A stretch of 58,868 bases of DNA, taken from the IMG/VR virus record IMGVR_UViG_3300037010_000704, positions 1-58,868 of that record; one strand, 5' to 3'. This document shows positions 4,143 to 47,435 of this stretch, piece after piece (the stretch's first letter is position 1; every line of letters starts with the position of its first letter). The notes under the pieces were generated by a model, which saw only the letters and a list, made by a program, of their open reading frames with translations, was not told where the DNA came from and did not search any database. The position numbers and the translations under genes are program-made. This DNA comes from a virus. Taxonomy: Duplodnaviria > Caudoviricetes.

Positions 4143-6122
4143 ATGACATCCAAAAAATCATCTCTGAATGAAGAGCAAAACAGCGCCGTCATCCACCCAC
4201 AGGGATCTCCTGCTTGTATCATAGCCGGTGCTGGGTCTGGAAAGACCAAGGTTCTCGCCTCTCGAATCGTCTGGCTCATCACTGAGGGTGTCAACCCCCG
4301 CCGCATCCTTGCCATCACATTCACCAACAAGGCTGCCGATGAACTCCGGGAGCGGGTAGCCAGGGAGTTGGGGATCGAGCAGGATGAAAAGACCGGCCCA
4401 CGGATCGGGACCATTCACAGTTTCGCTCTGAACGCTATCCGCAAGGATGCTAAGGGCTTCGGGTTAGACCACCGGGTCTCCCCCCTGGATGACTACGGCC
4501 AAAAGGAGATGATCGACCGCATCATCTTCCGGGGCAAGTTCACGGACACCGGCAAGCCCGACGGATCCCTGCTGAATCCCTGGGGCGTCAAAGACAAGAT
4601 CCAGTATCACCGAGCCAGGGGCCTCGGCTTCTACACCGACTACACCCCAGAGGTCCACAAGGAGGTGCTCAAGCGACACTCCGGCCTCCACGCCCTCTCC
4701 GATGGGGAGCTTGAAATCTGGCGACTCTACCAGGACGAGAAGCGGATGAACTCCGTTGTGGACTTCGACGACATGCTGCACCTTGTGGTGGAGCGGGCCG
4801 GTCGGGACGAGGTCTGGCGGGCACGACTCCAGTCCCAGTTCGACCACATCCTCATGGATGAGACTCAGGACACCAACGTCGTCCAGTGGCAGTTCTTCGA
4901 CTTCCTCTTCCGCCCCGACAACTTCAATGCCTACATCGTCGGGGACATGAGCCAGTCCATCTACGCCTTCAACGGAGCAGCCCCCAGCCTCCTCCTGGAA
5001 TACTCCCAAGGCTGGCGTGGGGTTGTCCCGACCCCCTATACCCTGGCCTGGAACTACCGAAGCTGCCCCGAGATCGTCAAGCTCGCCAACATCATCCAGA
5101 AGAAGATGACCGAAACGATCCCCCTCCACATGAAGTCCTTCCGGGGTGAGCGGGGGGAAACCGGCGTGGTCCGGTCCCTGCGGGCCACGACCCCCAGGGA
5201 GATCGCTTGCACGGCTGCCCACGAGATCAAACAGGGCAACGCCCGCATCAAGAACAAGGTGGCCTTCCGAGACCATGCCTTCCTGGTCCGGTCTGCCAGC
5301 CAAATCCGAGACATTGAATCCGAACTCGTCATTCAACGGATCCCCTACGTGATCCGGGGTGGCAGGGGCCTGCTCCAAACCGAAGAAGCCCGGGACATCC
5401 TTGCCTACCTTCGCTTCGCCGTGAACGTCCGGGACTGTGAATCCTTCGCCCGGGCTATTGCAGCCCCCCGTCGTGGGGTCGGGGACGTCGCCATAGAGAA
5501 GATCCGGGCTGTCGCCAGGAAGGAGTTCGACGGGGACATCCTCCGGGGCAGCGAGAAGGTGAGCCATGCCAAGCTGTCTGCCTTCAACGACGGCATCCGA
5601 GGCATCCAGCGTCAGGGCAGTCCTGTGGACGCCTTCAACTACGCCATCCACATGTCCGGCTACCTCAACTTCATCAAGGACAAATATGGCAAGAAGGAAC
5701 CTGACAAGGTCGAGACGAAGATCGAGAACCTTGGTCGCCTCAAGGACATGATCGCTGGGATCGTCGAGTTCAAGCCTGAGACCACCCTGGAGGATCTCGT
5801 CTTCCAGCTCACCTTGCATGAGAAGGAAGAGCGCAAGAATGAGGGGGAGGATGACGACGGTGCCGTGGTCATCTCCACCATCCACTCGGCCAAGGGCCTG
5901 GAGTGGCGACACGTCTATGTCTGGAATTGCTATGAGGGCACCCTGCCCCACATGTATTGCAAGACGGACGCTGAGATTGAAGAGGAACGCCGTCTGTTCT
6001 ACGTGGCCGTCACCCGTGCGAGGGACAACGTGGCCCTCTGCCTGCCTGGGGTCGTCCAGCGTGGTCCCAACTTCCAGTCCGTCATGCCTTCTCGCTTCCT
6101 CACTGAACTTGGCCTCGTATGA
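4143..6122 (+). CDS. uvrD: UvrD/PcrA/Rep superfamily 1 DNA helicase
   Basis: LNEEQ Q-motif, AGAGSGKT, ITFTNKAA, DETQD, VGDMSQSIY, NYRS, STIHSAKGLEW, EERRLFYVAVTRA. Confidence 0.95.
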   Translation: MTSKKSSLNEEQNSAVIHPQGSPACIIAGAGSGKTKVLASRIVWLITEGVNPRRILAITFTNKAADELRERVARELGIEQDEKTGPRIGTIHSFALNAIRKDAKGFGLDHRVSPLDDYGQKEMIDRIIFRGKFTDTGKPDGSLLNPWGVKDKIQYHRARGLGFYTDYTPEVHKEVLKRHSGLHALSDGELEIWRLYQDEKRMNSVVDFDDMLHLVVERAGRDEVWRARLQSQFDHILMDETQDTNVVQWQFFDFLFRPDNFNAYIVGDMSQSIYAFNGAAPSLLLEYSQGWRGVVPTPYTLAWNYRSCPEIVKLANIIQKKMTETIPLHMKSFRGERGETGVVRSLRATTPREIACTAAHEIKQGNARIKNKVAFRDHAFLVRSASQIRDIESELVIQRIPYVIRGGRGLLQTEEARDILAYLRFAVNVRDCESFARAIAAPRRGVGDVAIEKIRAVARKEFDGDILRGSEKVSHAKLSAFNDGIRGIQRQGSPVDAFNYAIHMSGYLNFIKDKYGKKEPDKVETKIENLGRLKDMIAGIVEFKPETTLEDLVFQLTLHEKEERKNEGEDDDGAVVISTIHSAKGLEWRHVYVWNCYEGTLPHMYCKTDAEIEEERRLFYVAVTRARDNVALCLPGVVQRGPNFQSVMPSRFLTELGLV

Positions 6123-8463: not shown

Positions 8464-9537
8464 CTATTCTGCGATTAGCAAGATTTCTTTTGATTTAGCA
8501 TTTTTAGATAAAACGTATTTATACTCTCCATAGTGTAAAACAGTAACTTTCTTTTTGACATCCTTTAGCAATTTAACCAAGTCGTCTTCACTCGGGATTC
8601 CATCGCTTCTATATGAAATTACAATCATTGAATCTCTATGATTATGAATCAACTCCTTGAAGGCATATAAAATAGTCTTCTTATCGTTCCATAGGGATGA
8701 TGGGCCTACGTATGGTTTGTGTTTTTTCTTGTGGTTTATTTTTTTATCCCAAGTTTCATAATTGGATATGCCCTCTAAAAAACAATAAAAATCAGCGTAA
8801 TCAACCCCGGTGCCCTTTGAGTTTAGATATGGGGGATCCAGATATACAAGATCATAACCACCGACTAACTCCAGAGCTTCCTTATTTGTGGCTTTGCAAT
8901 TGATGCCTATATCGAAAATAGAAGTATTGATTTCTTCTATAAAATTAAGAAAATGCTCTGAAAATGGTCTGTCCCAGGTCGTCTTGTTGCCGAAGCCTCT
9001 TTCTACTTCGGCTGTCCGCATGTATAAATTAGCACGATGAAATAGGTTATAGGGTCGTTTGATAATGCAGGCTTGAAATAACGCATCATAGGCGATGCAC
9101 TTTTCAAACTCATCTTCCATTGATTGGATATTCTGTGCAATCACATCTAACAATATGTTCTCTTCGTCTAAGAAAAATATACCACTATAATTATCACGAA
9201 TCGTGTTGAGGTAAGTTCTGTTAGCATTGCGGACCAAGGCCATTTTGGCTTTCGACTGATCTAGCGTGACTTTATTGTTTTCAATAATCGCTTTTGCACA
9301 TAAGTAATTACATTTTAAGTAATCGTTGTAAGTAACTTCTTTATGTTTTGATTTTAGCATGTGTGATACGACACCAGTTCCACCGAAAACATCTAGGCAC
9401 GTCCGAAACGAACGGTCCTTAATTTGACTCCAAATCCAAGCCAATAACTTGTACTTGCTCCCTTGATACCTTGTAGATGGGGGTATTGGTGAAGTGTATT
9501 CTGCTGTAAGTAGAGGCTGTGAGACGATTTTATCCAT
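8464..9537 (-). CDS. N6-adenine DNA methyltransferase, D12 (Dam/FokI-like) class, orphan
   Basis: RYQGSKYKL, DVFGGTGVVS (motif I), YND, YLDPPY (motif IV); strongly AT-rich compared with the flanks. Confidence 0.92.
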   Translation of the reverse strand: MDKIVSQPLLTAEYTSPIPPSTRYQGSKYKLLAWIWSQIKDRSFRTCLDVFGGTGVVSHMLKSKHKEVTYNDYLKCNYLCAKAIIENNKVTLDQSKAKMALVRNANRTYLNTIRDNYSGIFFLDEENILLDVIAQNIQSMEDEFEKCIAYDALFQACIIKRPYNLFHRANLYMRTAEVERGFGNKTTWDRPFSEHFLNFIEEINTSIFDIGINCKATNKEALELVGGYDLVYLDPPYLNSKGTGVDYADFYCFLEGISNYETWDKKINHKKKHKPYVGPSSLWNDKKTILYAFKELIHNHRDSMIVISYRSDGIPSEDDLVKLLKDVKKKVTVLHYGEYKYVLSKNAKSKEILLIAE

Positions 9538-16157: not shown

Positions 16158-17315
16158 CTACACCTGGGCAGTGAGGTCAGGGAGGAGTTCATCCACGATG
16201 CGTGTCATCTTCAGATCCCGTGAGTCTTTGATGTGAAACTGGTAACGATAGCCTGCGGCGAGACAGGCGAGTTGCTTCCTCCGGTTGAGGTCGTAGTTCT
16301 CCATCAGGGTCCACTCGGACTTCACCTCGATAATGAGGTTCTCCCCTGGAATGAAGATGTCGGGGTGGTAGGTGCGCTCTCGGCCTTGAGCATCCACATA
16401 CTCCACGGTAGGGATGTTGGTGAACTCGAAGTCCTCTTCCTTGTAGTGCCTCAGAAGTTCAGAGAGCACCAAGCCCTCGTAACCCTGGAGGTGGAGGATG
16501 CGGCCCGAAGGGAGTGTGTAGGGCTTGAAACCGAACATGCCCTTACGTATCTTGCGGAAGAATGCGCCGTTCTTCCTGGCGTGGGCAGCCCCGAACCGCG
16601 CACGGCATGTTGTGGCGTAAGCCTCCCGTCCGTGTGCCCCTTGCATAGCGAACTCCACTCCGTAGCGTTCCTTCATGGTGGCCTTGCGGCGGGGTGCCAC
16701 CTCGTCTGCCACCGCCGACATCCGCTCCCGGTAGTCGGCCCGCTGCATATGGTGACTGACGCCATAGGTAGCCTGCATGGTCTCCTTGATTCTCTCCTTT
16801 ACGGGGGGAGCTTGAGCGACGTTGGTGACCCCATAACGATCCTGGACAGTCTGTTCACGTCGCTTCAAGATGTCCGGGGACATGGCCCCTGCGTTCCCGT
16901 AGAGTGCCAAGTTGGTGGCTGCCCGCTTGGCCCGCACAGAGGCACTTGCCATGGGACTTGCCCCTCCAAACTTCTTGGTGTTTGTAATGCTTCGCTTCTC
17001 CTTCACCGCATCGGACTGGATGGGGACTTCCACCCCATACCTATCCAAGTTGGTCTTTCTGAACTTCTGATCCGCCGCTTTCGCTTGGTTAGGGCACTTC
17101 TTGTAGTGCTCCGAACAGCACCACACCCAGACTTTCTTCTCACCCGTCTCAGTTTTCACATGGCGCTGAAGACGGTATCGAGCGGGCTGGCCACACTCAT
17201 TCTCGCATAGCTGACCGAGAGGGACGGGGATGTTCCGTTCCCTCTCGGCACGTTCACGATTCTTACGAACCTTGGCTTGGTTCGGGGTTTCTACACGGTC
17301 GTCACTTGGGCACAT
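16158..17315 (-). CDS. Free-standing homing-type endonuclease: N-terminal Cys motif, (K/R)YGV helical repeats, C-terminal PD-(D/E)XK nuclease
   Basis: CENECG...CCSEHYKKC; repeated T.L.RYGV-like units; QGYE...YHPDIFI...IIEVKS catalytic motif. Confidence 0.8.
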   Translation of the reverse strand: MCPSDDRVETPNQAKVRKNRERAERERNIPVPLGQLCENECGQPARYRLQRHVKTETGEKKVWVWCCSEHYKKCPNQAKAADQKFRKTNLDRYGVEVPIQSDAVKEKRSITNTKKFGGASPMASASVRAKRAATNLALYGNAGAMSPDILKRREQTVQDRYGVTNVAQAPPVKERIKETMQATYGVSHHMQRADYRERMSAVADEVAPRRKATMKERYGVEFAMQGAHGREAYATTCRARFGAAHARKNGAFFRKIRKGMFGFKPYTLPSGRILHLQGYEGLVLSELLRHYKEEDFEFTNIPTVEYVDAQGRERTYHPDIFIPGENLIIEVKSEWTLMENYDLNRRKQLACLAAGYRYQFHIKDSRDLKMTRIVDELLPDLTAQV

Positions 17316-41971: not shown

Positions 41972-42768
41972 GGCATCACCGAAGTGAAGTCCACCCACTG
42001 GCCGTTCACGTAACCCACGCGGGTGGCGATAGTGCCCCGGCGGGCACAGGCGTTCCACACCCACCGGGGCAGGGACAGGGCTGCCCGGGAATAGGCATAC
42101 CACAGGAGGGCCTGGGTGGTGACTCCCTCTGCTTGGGCGATCTTGGTCCAGGCGTTGGATACCTTGGCGGCCTTGGAGGCCATCGCAAGGTCAGCGGCCT
42201 TCTTCCAGGCTATGGGTTGAGAGGGGTCGATGGGGGCGACGCTGCCCCTCTTGTTCGACATGCCCCCACTCTGGTTCAGGAGGTCAAAGAAGAAGACGAT
42301 CACCCTGGGGTTGTCAGCATCCCACTGGACATACTCGTCCGCCAGATCAAGAGCACGGTCAAGGGTATGCTCGGCAAGCTCCTTCTGGGCCTCCTTAGAT
42401 GCGTCGGTCTCCAGGAAGGCTTCCCACTCGGCCTTCGCCTCAGGGATGACCGGGTTGTTCCTCCCGTTGACCTGGATGAAGTTCGCCGTGATGAACTGGT
42501 AGGCTTGCGGGCCTTTCAGGGAGGCCAGGGTGGAGACCGTGGCGGGCACCGTGAAGAACGCATCAGCGTCAGCCGGTTCCATGCGTTCCAAAATCTCCCG
42601 CATGAGGAGGCTGAGGCTTCCGGCCTTGCCTGCCCACTGAAGGCAGCCCACGCTCATGCCCTGACCGTCGAAGTCTCCTGCGACGTTGGAGTAGCGGGGA
42701 GTGAACTCACCACCCTCGAAGAAACCAGTGACACTCAAGCAGGTGTCGAGAATCTCGGCCCTTTCCAT
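41968..42768 (-). CDS. Lysozyme-fold peptidoglycan hydrolase (endolysin candidate)
   Basis: TGFFEGG...GDFDGQGMSVGCLQW...GSL resembles the Glu...D.G.S.G.LQ motif of lysozyme-superfamily hydrolases. Confidence 0.55.
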   Translation of the reverse strand: MERAEILDTCLSVTGFFEGGEFTPRYSNVAGDFDGQGMSVGCLQWAGKAGSLSLLMREILERMEPADADAFFTVPATVSTLASLKGPQAYQFITANFIQVNGRNNPVIPEAKAEWEAFLETDASKEAQKELAEHTLDRALDLADEYVQWDADNPRVIVFFFDLLNQSGGMSNKRGSVAPIDPSQPIAWKKAADLAMASKAAKVSNAWTKIAQAEGVTTQALLWYAYSRAALSLPRWVWNACARRGTIATRVGYVNGQWVDFTSVMP

Positions 42769-42784
42769 GGCAGGCCCCTCATGA

Positions 42785-43000
42785 TTAGGTTGCGGTTGCG
42801 TCCTCTGCGGGTTTGGCCTGAACCTCTGCCCGCTGCTTCATGGCCTCTGGGTCCACCTCGGTTACCTTCGTGTTTAGAAGTTCCCAGGTGTGGGCCGCGA
42901 GCCCGAGTTCTTGCATACCAATGAGCCCCTGACTTTGGCACCGCTCAAACAAAGATAGGGTGAAGTCGTAGGCGTCGTTGGAAAGAAGTAGTGCTTTCAT
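42785..43000 (-). CDS. Small hypothetical protein
   Basis: 71-aa ORF filling the gap in the operon. Confidence 0.65.
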   Translation of the reverse strand: MKALLLSNDAYDFTLSLFERCQSQGLIGMQELGLAAHTWELLNTKVTEVDPEAMKQRAEVQAKPAEDATAT

Positions 43001-43013
43001 ACGAAAAGCCCCC

Positions 43014-43607
43014 TTAGATAGTAGGCATGTGGTGAGGCTGGTTCTTCTTCCCTGCGGCCTTCTTGGGTGGAGGCTGTGGGGGGTCCGGCAGGGTTACCGG
43101 GGGGTTGGCCTGGACCTGGGCTTGAAGAGGCACTTGGGGAGGCGGCATGGGAGCGGGGGTGACCACGGAGGGCGGTGGGCTGCTGGGAGGGGCCGGGTCG
43201 GCGTAGTCCTCCTCGGGGTGGGTGTCCTCCCAGGCGGCTTCATCCCCATCGGCGATGATGTCGGAATCAAGGGGGACGACCTCAACCGGATGGGCGGGGG
43301 GGTCAATGAGGGTGGAACCCTCGGCCTCCATGCGGGCGCGAGCCTGGGCTTCGATGGCCCACCCGATGTCCGTGTAGTGGATGTTGCCATCAGCGTCGAT
43401 ACCATCATTGGGCTTGAGGTTGTAGATGGTCGTCAGGTGGTCAATCCACCCCTGAAGGGCCTGATTGGCAGCTTGGCCAGCCTGGATAGCAGTGAAGGCG
43501 GCTGCCCGAGCCCGGACCTCCGCCTCCTGTGCATTCTTCAGATCATCAACCAGCTTCTTGTGGTAGCTCAGATGTTCGGGGTTAAGAACAGTTGGCATAT
43601 TTTCCAT
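43014..43607 (-). CDS. Hypothetical protein, coiled-coil N-terminus and Pro-rich disordered tail
   Basis: Start at ATG 43607 or 43598 just outside the TnpB right end; PPPQ/PPPK-rich C-terminus. Confidence 0.7.
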   Translation of the reverse strand: MENMPTVLNPEHLSYHKKLVDDLKNAQEAEVRARAAAFTAIQAGQAANQALQGWIDHLTTIYNLKPNDGIDADGNIHYTDIGWAIEAQARARMEAEGSTLIDPPAHPVEVVPLDSDIIADGDEAAWEDTHPEEDYADPAPPSSPPPSVVTPAPMPPPQVPLQAQVQANPPVTLPDPPQPPPKKAAGKKNQPHHMPTI

Positions 43608-43614
43608 AAAAGGT

Positions 43615-43750
43615 CTGCTACTTTCTAAGTGAACACAAGTGTTCACTCTCAAATTCCTGCTTCAACGACCGCAGTTTCGACAGGGCTTCCGCCCCGCCCA
43701 GAGCCGCAATCTCCACAGGCGTAACTTCGGGACTAGCCGTCCCTAGTTTG
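43615..43750 (-). ncRNA. Predicted TnpB omegaRNA (reRNA) scaffold overlapping the tnpB 3' end
   Basis: Hairpins GGGAC/GTCCC and GGCGGGGC-GGAA-GCCCTGTC, ACGCCTGTGGAG...GAAGCAGGAA pseudoknot-type motif, terminal palindrome AGTGAACAC-TT-GTGTTCACT (43628-43647), ending ...TAGCAG. Confidence 0.7.
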
Positions 43751-44850
43751 TTGGTTACGAACAAGCCATAATCACGAAGATTTAGGCTTGCATTAAAGTC
43801 CCTATCCTCAACAACACCACAGCTTTCGCAGATGTATTCCCGCTCATCCAAACCCATTTGGGCCTTTACTGATCCACAAGCGTTGCAACGCTTTGTGGAA
43901 GGGAAAAAACGATCTGCAATAATCAGGTTTCTACGATAAAGTGGTGCCTTGTATTCAAGCTGCCTTCGGGTTTCGGCGAAGCCGACATCCGATACTGCAC
44001 GACCCCAGAGGGCCAACATACCACTTACACTTAAGTCCTCTATTACCACCGTTTGGTTTTCACGGAGTATAGTAGACGTAAATTTATGAATGAAATCTTT
44101 CCTGATGTTAGTAATGTGTTGATGAAGCCTTGCAAGGCGTCCTGCGGACTTCTTGCGATTGTTGGACCCTTTTACTTTCCGGGAGTGCTGCTTAGAAAGA
44201 CGCCGTAGGCGTTTTAACTTAGCTTTTAACGGCTTTGGCGCTGAAAGCGCCAAACCGTCAGAGGTAACTGCGAAGGTTTTCAAACCTAGGTCAACGCCAA
44301 TAATGGTGGTTGAGGGTGCCGCCTCGCGGCGGTAGTCATCAGGAAGCCGGACTTGAACTGAAATAAACCAGTCATTGGCAGTCCTGGACACCGTTCCTGA
44401 CATGATCTTGCCAGTAAAACGGAGTTCCTCCGTCATTTTTATTTTACCTATGACGGGGAGACAGGCTACCAGCCCGTCAAGGTCAAACTTATCGTTAGAC
44501 AAATAAAAGCTATCGTGTTCCCCCTTTTTCTTAAACTTAGGAAAGCCCACCCGGCGCTTCGCGCCCTTGGACTCATAACAGCGTTTCAGGGCTTTTTTAA
44601 GATTAGCAAAGGGCTGCTGGTTTGCATCCTTCGGACTTTCATATATCCACGGAAAGGACTCGCCCTTGAGGGCATTGAACTGTTTCTTAAGATCATTCAT
44701 TGAGACTTTAGCCACACCCTGACTCTTTAGCTCGGTGTATTGGGCCAAGGCCCAATTCCAAGCAAAGCGTGAACATCCTGCTGCCTTCGCCAACGCCTGA
44801 CGCTGTTCCAGCGTCGGCGTCAGGCGGATTTTGTGGGCTAGGGTGAACAT
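43618..44850 (-). CDS. tnpB: RNA-guided endonuclease TnpB, IS607-associated type, catalytic triad intact
   Basis: AHKIRL.P...AG.SRFAWNWAL HTH start; RuvC-I GVDLG, RuvC-II IEDL, Zn finger CNACG/CESCG, RuvC-III DRDFNASLN; lower GC than the flanks. Confidence 0.95.
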   Translation of the reverse strand: MFTLAHKIRLTPTLEQRQALAKAAGCSRFAWNWALAQYTELKSQGVAKVSMNDLKKQFNALKGESFPWIYESPKDANQQPFANLKKALKRCYESKGAKRRVGFPKFKKKGEHDSFYLSNDKFDLDGLVACLPVIGKIKMTEELRFTGKIMSGTVSRTANDWFISVQVRLPDDYRREAAPSTTIIGVDLGLKTFAVTSDGLALSAPKPLKAKLKRLRRLSKQHSRKVKGSNNRKKSAGRLARLHQHITNIRKDFIHKFTSTILRENQTVVIEDLSVSGMLALWGRAVSDVGFAETRRQLEYKAPLYRRNLIIADRFFPSTKRCNACGSVKAQMGLDEREYICESCGVVEDRDFNASLNLRDYGLFVTNKLGTASPEVTPVEIAALGGAEALSKLRSLKQEFESEHLCSLRK

Positions 44851-44947
44851 GCTTTCCTCTAATCAACACTTCTGAGTAGACTACTGGTTGCTGAGTCGGA
44901 CTCCTGGCGATCAGGATACCACACCCCTTGTGGGCTAGGCATCAACT

Positions 44948-45256
44948 TCAATTTTTACTCTGGGCAAGCTCGGCCAGACGCTCGGCCTCGATGTCCTCGG
45001 TCTCCCAGTCATCCATGAGGCCCGCGAACTTTAGGATGGTCTGGCGAGGGCCGTCATTGAGTTCCGCCAGGGAGCGTGTCGTCACCCGGTCCTTCTTCAC
45101 AGAGAGCACCTCACCCGTGTCGGCGTCGTATTCCACGAGTTCCCTATGAGCCTTGATGAGAGGGTCGTCGCCGAACTCGGAGAACACCTCGATACGCCAG
45201 GAGTGCCGGACAACCACGGACCCACGCTTCTCATTTTTGCTAACGAATACAGACAT
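44948..45256 (-). CDS. Hypothetical protein (fibre cluster)
   Basis: 102 aa with AGGAG SD overlapping the previous stop. Confidence 0.75.
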   Translation of the reverse strand: MSVFVSKNEKRGSVVVRHSWRIEVFSEFGDDPLIKAHRELVEYDADTGEVLSVKKDRVTTRSLAELNDGPRQTILKFAGLMDDWETEDIEAERLAELAQSKN

Positions 45257-45264
45257 AGGGGCTC

Positions 45265-46023
45265 CTAAAAGGTCAAAAACATCCTGGTAGCATCATACGC
45301 CACCTGGAAGGCATTGTTCTGAAATGCGTTGGCCTGGAAGGCTCCAGGGCCACCTGTCGTCATGCCGCGAAAGGCCGCGATGACGTGGGCGTAGTAACTG
45401 GCGGGGGAGCACGTCATCCTATCGAAATAGGTGCCCGTCTCCGAGACAACCTTGTCGAGAGAGGCTGAAGGCCCGCCCGTGTAATAGTCGGTGTTGGACT
45501 GACGTTTGGTAAAGCCGGTGTCCCCCTCGGTGACCACCACGCTGTTGGTCACATCCTCTGTCCAGAAGCAGAATAGATAGGCGTTGGGGAAGTTTGTGAC
45601 GATGGCGTTGGAGGTGTGATTGAGGGCTGCGGCCCCCTCGGCGGACCCAAAGGAGTAGGAGTCCAATACTGTATTGATGTTCTGGTCCATGTTTGCCACC
45701 ACATGCACGGTGACAACCGTGTAGCCCGACTCACCTGTGGTGATGGTGATGAGGCCGATAGTCTCCGTGGCTTTGGCGATGGCGTAGAACAGGTGAATGG
45801 TGCTCGTGGCGTTGGAGATGTAGACGCCTGACCCTACCTCCCTATAGGTGTTGCTCCCCCCTGCTGCGTTGTCCGAACACGTCGTCGTCTGCAAGGAGGT
45901 TCCATCCGAGCGGAAGGCGACAATGATGAGATCCCCGGCAGTCACATCTACGTTCGCCTGAGTCGTGGTAGAGTCACTCGGCGTGGTGTATGAGTTCCTG
46001 AGGAATGGGGGCGAAACTGCCAT
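45265..46023 (-). CDS. Beta-rich virion/fibre-associated protein
   Basis: V.AGDLIIVA...SDN.GG.NTY pattern; C-terminal AFQANAFQNNAFQ repeat. Confidence 0.55.
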   Translation of the reverse strand: MAVSPPFLRNSYTTPSDSTTTQANVDVTAGDLIIVAFRSDGTSLQTTTCSDNAAGGSNTYREVGSGVYISNATSTIHLFYAIAKATETIGLITITTGESGYTVVTVHVVANMDQNINTVLDSYSFGSAEGAAALNHTSNAIVTNFPNAYLFCFWTEDVTNSVVVTEGDTGFTKRQSNTDYYTGGPSASLDKVVSETGTYFDRMTCSPASYYAHVIAAFRGMTTGGPGAFQANAFQNNAFQVAYDATRMFLTF

Positions 46024-46026
46024 GGG

Positions 46027-46452
46027 CTACACCCAGGTCATCGGTGGGAGCAGATCTACCATTTCTTCCACAGTGATGATGGGCTTCTCACCAGCCTGAA
46101 CACCATTCAGGTAGGCTGTCGCAGTGTCCCACACGGCGTCCCTCCACTTCACCCCGGCCTTGCCCTCAGTGGCAAACCGAGGGTTCTCCGAGGTTGCGTA
46201 GGAACACAGGGACAAGATGCCGTCGTAGTTGCGACTCGCGGCCACGGAGTCCATGTGATCCTGGATCGCCTGGATGTAGCCAGCGATGAGGGCCTCCAGG
46301 TTGAAGGGGGTGACCTGTTCAGGCTGATTTCCGGCTTCCACCCAGGCGATGTAGGCCAGGAAATCTGGATCTTGGTCGGATTGACACGGGGCTACCACAA
46401 CCCCATCGGAGTTGCGAGTCACGGTGCCGGAGCTAGGATCAAGTGAATACAT
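46027..46452 (-). CDS. Tail-fibre assembly chaperone-like protein
   Basis: D.DFLAYIAWVEAGNQP and IQDHMDSVA..RNYD.I.S.CSYA.S....F..EG...WRD.VW...LP...W motifs typical of fibre-assembly proteins. Confidence 0.7.
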   Translation of the reverse strand: MYSLDPSSGTVTRNSDGVVVAPCQSDQDPDFLAYIAWVEAGNQPEQVTPFNLEALIAGYIQAIQDHMDSVAASRNYDGILSLCSYATSENPRFATEGKAGVKWRDAVWDTATAYLNGVQAGEKPIITVEEMVDLLPPMTWV

Positions 46453-46454
46453 GG

Positions 46455-47435
46455 TTACTGGTCCGTAGAGATCCAAGCCGAGATGAAGTCGAGGCCAACT
46501 GCACTAGCCGTGGCATTGTTGGTCCGCCAGAGCAGTGGGGCCGTTAGTAGGGTGGTGTTCGAGGGTAGCTGGGTGCCTGGAGTGGCAGCAGTCAGGGTTC
46601 CCTCAGCTACATGCCCGGTGTTCAACCTGGTCACCTTGTAGCCAACAGCGTTATTCGCCTTCGGGGAAGCGAACAGGATGAGTTCGTAAACATCCACGCT
46701 CAGAGTGTTCGCGGGAAAGTTAGCCCCAAGGTCGATAGGTGTCTGGGCCGCACTTCCACCATAGAAGATTTTGAGGTTGGTGTCGGAGGCACCATGCCCG
46801 ACTCCGATAGAGTTGGTGAGGGTTGAGGGCTCAACATTGGTGGGAGCGCCTGTGGCTGACGAGATTCCCACAAACTGACGGGCACCTGATACCGTCGCCG
46901 CATCAGAAGTCATGAAGCGAATGCAGAGGAAGAATCCCCCCATGTCTGGCACACCTGATCCAGGAACCCCGAGGGTGTATTGAGCCACGGGGACACGCAG
47001 TGATACCAGTGACCCTGCGGTAGTGGATGATACATAGCCGAGGCGCTTGATTCGGGTTGCGAAGTTCGTGGTTGCCACGTTCCTGGCGGTGGCAGTGCCC
47101 ACCGTAGTGAACGCGGTGGCACCCCCCGTGAGGGTCGAAACTGTGGTGGCGTTGCCAGGAGGGCTCCACATGGAGACTTTATCCTGGCCAAGGAAGTTCT
47201 GGAGGATGGTACTGGTTCCTGATGGGCCGATCACCTTAGGAACAGCACGGCCCGCGACGAGCCTGGAGTAGAAGGTGAGCTTACCAGCGGCGGGTGGTAA
47301 TGGGTCCGTTGAACCCGCCGTCATGAGGATGCCCCCGGAGTCCACCACATGGTCGGAGTTCCAGTCGGAGGGAAGGACTACGGAGGTGTCCCCTCCGTCA
47401 GCCTGGGTTAGAGCCTTTGCATGTTTGAGGGCCAT
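46455..47435 (-). CDS. Tail fibre/receptor-binding-like protein
   Basis: MALKHA..V.PSDWN.DH N-terminal anchor plus a beta-sandwich (lectin-like) C-terminus. Confidence 0.55.
   Translation of the reverse strand: MALKHAKALTQADGGDTSVVLPSDWNSDHVVDSGGILMTAGSTDPLPPAAGKLTFYSRLVAGRAVPKVIGPSGTSTILQNFLGQDKVSMWSPPGNATTVSTLTGGATAFTTVGTATARNVATTNFATRIKRLGYVSSTTAGSLVSLRVPVAQYTLGVPGSGVPDMGGFFLCIRFMTSDAATVSGARQFVGISSATGAPTNVEPSTLTNSIGVGHGASDTNLKIFYGGSAAQTPIDLGANFPANTLSVDVYELILFASPKANNAVGYKVTRLNTGHVAEGTLTAATPGTQLPSNTTLLTAPLLWRTNNATASAVGLDFISAWISTDQ

Follow-up and report, generated by a model that had tools for sequence, protein, structure and literature searches.

The minus-strand tnpB element at positions 43615 to 44900 of IMG/VR virus record IMGVR_UViG_3300037010_000704 is, with high confidence as to identity and anatomy, a non-autonomous insertion sequence of the IS607 family made up of tnpB and an omegaRNA, and a natural metagenome (run X3) contains both occupied and vacant forms of its insertion site. 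The record, referred to below as the window (the whole stretch of DNA analysed), is a linear fragment of 58,868 bp with a CheckV completeness of 19%, and the element is polymorphic in natural populations of the phage. The best explanation of the whole, which we regard as fairly probable, is that this non-autonomous IS607 element, polymorphic in the phage, spreads by guided cutting and copying; the separate claim that guided cutting contributes to its spread in this phage is held tentatively, as a possibility. The features of the element are as follows.

43615 to 44900, minus strand: whole element of 1286 bp, comprising left end, tnpB and omegaRNA/right end, without tnpA
44851 to 44900, minus strand: left end of 50 nt, starting TCCGACTC, with two ACTCAG direct repeats and the tnpB Shine-Dalgarno sequence TAGAGG
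44901 to 44905, minus strand: AGGAG adjoining the left end, the predicted transposon-adjacent motif (TAM) and, in the vacant allele, the Shine-Dalgarno sequence of the downstream gene
43618 to 44850, minus strand: tnpB open reading frame (ORF) of 410 aa, RuvC triad and zinc finger intact, the final ~45 codons overlapping the omegaRNA scaffold
43615 to 43743, minus strand: omegaRNA scaffold, with stem 1 at 43743-43729, a RAGATH-18-like core at 43719-43654, a terminal hairpin at 43647-43628 and the 3' end ...AGUAGCAG
43596 to 43614, minus strand: predicted guide template ACCTTTTATGGAAAATATG, the right-end flank, holding the spacer, start codon and first four codons of a 197-aa gene

Protein, RNA and borders of the element

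The tnpB gene (43618-44850, minus strand) is the only one in the record, and its product matches the Pfam families OrfB_IS605 (98.6 bits against a cut-off of 30.5; 3.5e-28), Cas12f1-like TNB, which is the zinc finger (63.6 bits, cut-off 26.3; 1.9e-17), and HTH_OrfB_IS605 (55.9 bits, cut-off 21; 2.9e-15), as well as PHROG 506 (2.5e-103). In an alignment of the protein with 24 homologues of 47-78% identity, the RuvC triad D187/E271/D351 and the zinc-finger cysteines C322/C325/C341/C344 are invariant in all 25 sequences, and the triad and zinc-finger region aligns with the catalytic motifs of ISDra2 TnpB. ISDra2 is the closest solved natural TnpB by sequence (E 9e-51, residues 5-366) and has the same domain order and catalytic residues (PDB 8h1j, 8bf8), but it belongs to IS200/IS605, with a Y1 TnpA, a TTGAT TAM and transposition through single-stranded DNA, whereas the relatives of the window element are linked to serine recombinases. 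Chain 8iaz, which we take to be the TnpB structure of ISFba1 (IS607), its entry title reading only 'Transposase', matches at E 1e-39, and the best structure match overall is 9yyg, an AI-designed nuclease. The composition of the gene differs from its surroundings, with a GC content of 0.45-0.53 inside the element against 0.56-0.67 in the flanks and a GC content at third codon positions (GC3) of 0.52 against 0.65-0.83 in neighbouring genes, which points to a foreign origin. The C-terminal tail ...KLRSLKQEFESEHLCSLRK is conserved in the alignment and is most simply explained as a translation of the omegaRNA.

Folding of the final ~130 nt of the element gives a stem, two nested helices enclosed by a long-range closing helix (GCCUG...CAGGA), and a terminal hairpin; the minimum free energy of -56.8 kcal/mol (z -3.78) was equalled by 1 of 200 shuffled sequences. 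For 22 related 3' regions, the RNAalifold consensus has 14 pairs, of which 8 show compensatory changes. Relative to locus L084, helices P1-P4 keep 27 of 27 pairs, with 6 changed on both sides and none broken, and relative to L086 there are 9 pairs changed on both sides and 2 broken; these counts were made by script, and MAFFT misaligned the terminal hairpin, which forms in the window, L084 and L086 from differing sequences. The Rfam model RAGATH-18 (RF03064) matches 43719-43654 over its full length at 25.1 bits against a gathering threshold of 44.9 (E 0.059), and at that threshold no Rfam match was found in the window or in 20 relatives. As judged from sequence, the RNA is RAGATH-18-like and not a RAGATH-18 member, the likeness lying in the conserved closing helix and junction.

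The termini of the element, nGGAG/NCNGACTC...TAGCAG/ (slashes marking its borders), are the same as those of multi-copy IS607 relatives with a serine-recombinase TnpA. These relatives include three copies at different sites in a betaproteobacterial metagenome-assembled genome (MAG; L017-L019, 99.5-99.9% mutual identity) and three at different sites in Chloroflexus sp. MS-G (L009, L013, L014); with L022, 7 of 7 start nGGAG/NCNGACTCTAG... and end ...GATAGCAG/, so that GGAG stands before the left end in all seven independent insertions and TAM position -5 varies. From these shared termini it follows that the element runs from 44900 to 43615, that AGGAG abuts its left end, and that the flank from 43614, starting ACCTTTTATGG..., is the guide template. 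Read on the minus strand, the left junction of the occupied allele is ...CCAGGAG/TCCGACTCAGC... and the right junction is ...TTAGAAAGTAGCAG/ACCT-TTTATGGAAAA. The core dinucleotide AG is present both in the flank (44902-44901) and at the right end (43616-43615), and the clade of the window element ends in AG, unlike the GG in which IS607 members mostly end according to passages of a 2026 review (PMC13565253). No terminal inverted repeat was found in the element, the longest end-to-end match being 10 nt at 90%. AGGAG is the experimental TAM for 18 of 22 strains of IS607 TnpBs in the sections drawn on from PMC11061315, and AGGAG at 44905-44901 is the predicted TAM of the window TnpB. The 12-nt sequence CCTAGCCCACAA forms a perfect direct repeat, with one copy in the phage spacer that precedes the element (44939-44928) and one in tnpB codons 3-7 (44842-44831); the score of this repeat was reached by 5 of 2000 shuffles, and, given that 1 of 85 control phage pieces scores higher, the repeat was treated as probably due to chance.

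In at least 28 of the 54 relatives' loci (a lower bound, the ORF selection having missed some), tnpB is immediately preceded by a co-oriented ORF of ~200 aa with a MerR-type helix-turn-helix (HTH) and a Resolvase domain. This TnpA is present in the terminus-matching elements L009, L017, L018 and L019, and there were no matches to a Y1 transposase among 55 upstream ORFs scanned from the relatives' loci. Within the 58.9-kb window neither Resolvase (PF00239) nor Y1 transposase domains were found, and the left end before tnpB is only 50 nt long. The combination of family-typical termini and missing tnpA indicates a tnpA-less, non-autonomous IS607 derivative rather than a complete IS607 element, and, since the termini match those of autonomous multi-copy elements, mobilisation in trans by a host TnpA is possible. 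These results bear out most of the first-pass annotation of this DNA, which had described a tnpB with intact RuvC triad and zinc finger, an omegaRNA-like 3' end (now with a fold of z -3.78 and covariation with relatives), IS607-type affiliation and no transposase; the search for tnpA and for further copies that it advised returned no tnpA and no second tnpB in what is a 19%-complete fragment. The guide that it predicted is exact, the right end stopping at 43615 (...TAGCAG) and the flank occupying 43614-43596.

The closest relative with a DNA sequence, L084:1306-2538 (68% protein and 66% DNA identity), is also tnpA-less and of lower GC content than its flanks. A co-oriented ORF has its ATG 8 nt past the right end, no GGAG closes the left flank, and upstream there is an NAD-ligase-like BRCT fragment and a tRNA-like T-arm string at which no tRNA was called. 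The right-end 19-mer of the window element had no viral matches and one bacterial match, in a Chloroflexaceae MAG (L145:1357-1375), where it belongs to a decayed omegaRNA-like remnant without tnpB, and an element in a Roseiflexus MAG (L030:4252-4267) ends with the same CTAGAAAGTAGCAG; these matches hint that Chloroflexota of microbial mats are the home of the element family and perhaps the host of the phage. The solo tnpB of this Roseiflexus MAG is flanked on both sides by GTGAACGAA(C)ATG (L030:2942-2954 and 4268-4279), which is unexpected for a family without target duplication.

Occupied and vacant alleles of the site

Population data came from contigs only, in four public runs from four studies over 42700-45700, one of which (X1) is possibly the source of the record. 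Both element junctions are bridged by contigs in 4 of 4 runs. In run X3 an element-free contig joins 43610 to 44901, skipping 1290 bp with five other letters between, and reads ...GATCGCCAGGAG-ACCCC-TTTATGGAAAA on the minus strand. The empty allele that the first-pass annotation had advised looking for, a precondition for homing, is thus found at the predicted borders. Depth was 16.9 for the element-free contig and 60.4 for the element, placing the element at ~78% by depth. No target-site duplication was found on comparing the filled with the element-free allele. Immediately before the target stands GGAG in the vacant site and GCAG in the occupied site, a difference at position -3.

The target of the element-free allele, AGGAG-ACCCC-TTTATGG, departs from the guide, ACCT-TTTATGG, by T to CC at positions 4-5, that is, by a mismatch and one extra base. 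An ACCCC vacant allele of this kind is consistent with a resistance allele, within a flank that carries about one variant per 30 nt. Across the four runs, 42700-43610 (911 nt) had 27 variant positions and 44901-45700 had one, and 43611-44900 was free of them. By this count the 197-aa gene appears hypervariable and the element of more recent origin than its flank. A variant at 43581, 30 nt from the junction, divides the X3 contigs into depths of 36.8 and 35.9, and the occupied allele, at 50-60, is deeper than either, which means that no fewer than two flanking haplotypes carry the element.

Loose ends at 43691, 44033, 44065 and 44842 in runs X2 and X3 consist of partly similar tnpB/omegaRNA sequence running into other DNA, indicating related copies elsewhere in the same communities. 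The first-pass suggestion that transposition had been traded for homing is not upheld by these data, the termini being as in autonomous multi-copy IS607 elements and related copies occurring in other contexts in the same metagenomes. An identical TnpB protein is recorded on 5 contigs. Viral contigs yielded no match to the vacant-allele pattern and no vacant allele perfectly matching the guide. A blastn search of a phage GenBank collection with 42500-46500 gave zero matches, and querying IMG/VR with TnpB and both flanking proteins yielded no relative of the phage locus, near-identical records possibly lying outside that search. Searches through listings and text passages found no paper documenting a phage population in which a tnpB element has both vacant and occupied alleles.

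Position between a Shine-Dalgarno sequence and a start codon

The products encoded in the window include helicases, a DNA methyltransferase, a tRNA nucleotidyltransferase and a homing-endonuclease-like protein, and from ~42 to 59 kb there is a long run of minus-strand genes with matches to tail-fibre, tail-assembly and baseplate proteins. The element sits inside this tail-gene block, co-oriented with the neighbouring phage genes, of which the two adjoining ones are as follows.

44948 to 45256, minus strand: upstream phage gene, 102 aa, without family match
43014 to 43607, minus strand: downstream phage gene, 197 aa, without family match, with its ATG at 43607-43605

Elsewhere in the record, a 385-aa ORF (16158-17315, minus strand) matches phage homing-endonuclease families (phrog_3339, 1.4e-20) and is, on this match, a candidate second selfish nuclease in the same phage, and a DNA methyltransferase gene (8464-9537, minus strand; phrog_27806, 5.7e-40) with a GC3 of 0.38 against 0.7-0.8 in its neighbours is probably another recent acquisition.

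The 197-aa gene of the vacant allele has an ordinary Shine-Dalgarno layout, with AGGAG 8 nt ahead of its ATG. The element occupies the space between this Shine-Dalgarno sequence (44905-44901) and the ATG. No coding sequence is broken, and in the occupied allele the right end and the tnpB stop codon precede the ATG by 7 nt and 10 nt, respectively. No good Shine-Dalgarno sequence is left there for the 197-aa gene, whose translation would need coupling to tnpB or the weak AGAAAG. The first-pass description of a co-oriented insertion that disrupts no gene therefore stands as regards orientation and coding sequence, but the Shine-Dalgarno sequence of the downstream gene has been separated from its ATG.

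The first-pass observation that the predicted guide covers the translation-start region of the downstream gene is correct, the guide taking in the spacer, the ATG and the first four codons. This position raises the alternative that the element is a domesticated regulator, in which TnpB-omegaRNA binds the translation-start region of the 197-aa gene in the manner of the nuclease-dead TldR, and the guide does span the region from Shine-Dalgarno sequence to start. The catalytic D-E-D triad is intact, however, unlike that of exapted TnpB regulators, the target in the occupied allele is preceded by GCAG and not by a GGAG TAM, and, because some members of the population lack the element, it does not represent a fixed host function. 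Such a role is considered extremely improbable.

Insertion at this position recurs among relatives. Of 29 relatives whose right ends were placed, 10 have a co-oriented ORF of 100 codons or more whose ATG lies 5-8 nt past the right end, compared with 80/1392 (5.75%) at GGAG sites of the same loci and 464/14,500 (3.2%) at random positions; the excess over the control GGAG sites has a binomial P of 2.9e-6, in a set that is biased because right ends (loci L008-L121) were found by a self-written motif and curation by eye, with 5 of 34 curated right ends dropped for a flank shorter than 320 nt. A looser form of the test gave 16/32 against 19.5%, and the window element is one further case. A TAM equal to the Shine-Dalgarno core would explain this pattern. 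The clade appears to use the Shine-Dalgarno sequence as TAM and target, which would place its members between that sequence and the start codon of co-oriented genes, where they would borrow the gene's transcription and take its translation-start region as guide. In a subgroup of five (L093, L095, L096, L100, L107), the right end itself bears a Shine-Dalgarno-like AAAGGTGG right before the flank. A literature search on Shine-Dalgarno sequences and ribosome binding sites found no paper on such an insertion pattern of IS607.

The tnpB gene has its own Shine-Dalgarno sequence, as the first-pass annotation had stated: TAGAGG at 44861-44856, 5 nt before the ATG and inside the left end of the element, with a similar TAGAGGA upstream of tnpB in L084. 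The annotation had also read this sequence as part of a segment ACT-N13-TAGAGG (44877-44856) resembling a motif, termed motif B, of the phage structural genes. The segment is present, but its likeness to motif B is at the level of chance, with 7 matches at up to one mismatch in the window against 8.5 expected and 79 of 100 shuffles reaching 7. TAGAGG alone occurs 32 times against 21.3 expected, and several of those on the gene strand are found shortly ahead of gene starts (e.g. 36137-36132 and 40025-40020), consistent with use as a Shine-Dalgarno sequence. The proposed wiring into the late operon through motif B is accordingly given up, since TAGAGG lies within the left end and recurs in L084, and is the element's own Shine-Dalgarno sequence. 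A scan found no sigma-70-like promoter on the minus strand near the element, sites being no more frequent than expected from shuffles, and terminator-like sites near it showed no excess over shuffles. With no promoter-like site of its own, the element is likely transcribed by read-through from the phage operon.

Proposed guided spread and comparison with known systems

The proposed mechanism would begin with entry of the element by recombination at the AG core dinucleotide, carried out in trans by a serine-recombinase TnpA from a host-resident or other copy. The element would be transcribed by read-through from the phage operon, and TnpB would bind the 3' portion of its own transcript and process it to an omegaRNA, with the initial ~16-20 nt of the flank (ACCTTTTATGGAAAAT...) as guide. 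The complex would then cut AGGAG followed by the guide sequence, which is the element-free copy of the same phage locus, and the occupied locus would be protected by having GCAG rather than GGAG before the target. Repair of the break in a co-infected cell would use the element-bearing genome as template and thereby copy the element, a non-restorative homing. The steps of entry, read-through expression, processing, cutting and copying are carried over from the family mechanism as given in parts of PMC10055086, PMC10690162 and PMC11061315, and 'transposon non-restorative homing' into co-infecting phages appears as a theoretical class in the portions of the 2026 review used here (PMC13565253). 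RNA-guided homing among co-infecting phages is plausible.

In its strongest form, this account would make the element a natural RNA-guided gene drive in the phage population, spread by cutting vacant AGGAG-plus-target sites during co-infection. A gene drive would account for the frequency of ~78%, the presence on at least two haplotypes and the zero internal diversity, and the remaining vacant alleles would be drive-resistant through the seed-disrupting ACCCC in place of ACCT next to the TAM. We nevertheless consider a gene drive unlikely.

Several points weigh against guided spread. According to the relevant portion of PMC11061315, ISFba1 TnpB cuts very poorly or not at all when a single mismatch falls at guide positions 1-13, and, taken with the seed mismatch, these data make homing into the recovered vacant allele unlikely. 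That allele is a single 65-nt unitig with sides of 30 nt, from one run, and, at about one variant per 30 nt, its seed difference is expected even without selection. Two haplotypes and zero internal diversity would follow equally from a single recent insertion and subsequent ordinary recombination between phages. For this clade the TAM is a prediction from flanking sequences. The RAGATH-18 match is sub-threshold in the window, with none at threshold among 20 relatives, ISDra2 is closer to the window TnpB than 8iaz in spite of belonging to IS200/IS605, and, the record being a fragment, tnpA may lie elsewhere in the phage.

A rival account is that of a passive passenger, one recent and tolerated IS607-type insertion that does not affect its own inheritance and whose TnpB is either not produced or makes no useful cut during infection, with the polymorphism reflecting ancestry, drift or hitch-hiking together with ordinary recombination. 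The element-free allele mismatches the guide, in highly polymorphic flanks where a mismatch is expected by chance, and the element has no promoter-like site of its own. Phage tnpB is moreover known as a plain acquisition of an insertion sequence, that of cyanophage A-1(L) being identical to five host copies in the excerpts drawn on from 10.64898/2026.02.14.705889. A passenger sits less well with an intact triad, an intact zinc finger and all 27 omegaRNA pairs (P1-P4, against L084) kept, or with an element that is present in 4 of 4 runs and is the majority allele in X3, and co-orientation in a gene-dense operon makes its transcription hard to avoid. On balance a passive passenger is judged somewhat unlikely.

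With the same anatomy as in the preferred account, TnpB-omegaRNA could instead be a weapon between phages, destroying co-infecting relatives with a matching vacant site and so excluding rather than converting them. Interference competition by a phage-borne intron endonuclease is known (reference 42 of PMC13565253, as cited in the part consulted). Where long identical flanks adjoin a break, however, the co-infecting genome with the element would normally serve for its repair, and killing without conversion would need diverged flanks. The guide 19-mer is unique in the window even when 3 mismatches are allowed, leaving no second target there, and a search with TAM plus guide gave 2 viral and 10 bacterial matches, about the number expected by chance, all of them unrelated low-GC gene starts without similarity to the phage. 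A weapon is considered very improbable.

The element shows likenesses to several described systems. ISFba1 TnpB with its RAGATH-18-derived right-end element RNA, in the sections used of PMC11061315, shares with the window a conserved closing helix (CCUGUGGAG...GAUGAAGCAGGAA) in the tnpB 3' end and downstream RNA, a guide taken from the right-end flank with AGGAG adjoining the left end, and a protein of ~390-410 aa with RuvC D-E-D triad and zinc finger. Unlike that system, the window has a sub-threshold RAGATH-18 score and no adjacent tnpA, and TAM position -5 varies among its relatives. The ISFba1 TAM contacts K80/K83 (PMC11061315, same sections) apparently correspond to D75/Q78 in the window TnpB, by our own count with an assumed 3-residue offset. 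The IS607 IStron of Clostridium botulinum, as presented in the passages drawn on from PMC10690162, is likewise of serine-recombinase type with a core dinucleotide common to flank and right end; its TAM equals the transposase target and its TnpB cuts the rejoined donor site. There the TAM is TGGG, the scaffold ends in TCGG and the difference at -3 protects the occupied site, compared with GGAG and GCAG in the window. The window differs in having a core of AG with a TAM of (A)GGAG rather than GG with TGGG, no group I intron and no tnpA, and in being carried by a phage.

The free-standing homing endonuclease genes of T4 Seg/Mob type, in the review passages cited above (PMC13565253), are similar in placing a nuclease gene between two conserved phage genes, in being present or absent among close relatives and in their expected action on co-infecting genomes. 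In contrast to these, recognition by the window element would be by RNA guide and TAM rather than by protein, and self would be told from non-self by the insertion itself, which parts the TAM from the target. The tnpB of cyanophage A-1(L) (10.64898/2026.02.14.705889, in excerpt) is also phage-borne and absent from close phage relatives, originates from a host insertion sequence and is transcribed in infection; unlike the window gene, it is identical to host copies and is discussed together with a genome inversion, and the excerpts present no analysis of an element-free allele, TAM or guide.

TnpB is known to bias the inheritance of its own transposon by cutting the vacated site, and TnpB homing between co-infecting phages is so far a theoretical class in the literature consulted. 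This locus provides a concrete natural test case, with exact borders, a predicted TAM and guide, and occupied and vacant alleles in the same samples, and the seed difference of the vacant allele is what a resistance allele would look like. If the nuclease is inactive, or if the vacant allele is merely ancestral, the locus would be an ordinary insertion sequence in a phage. The rule by which the TAM is a Shine-Dalgarno sequence, if true, could explain both the landing sites and the expression of this IS607 clade.

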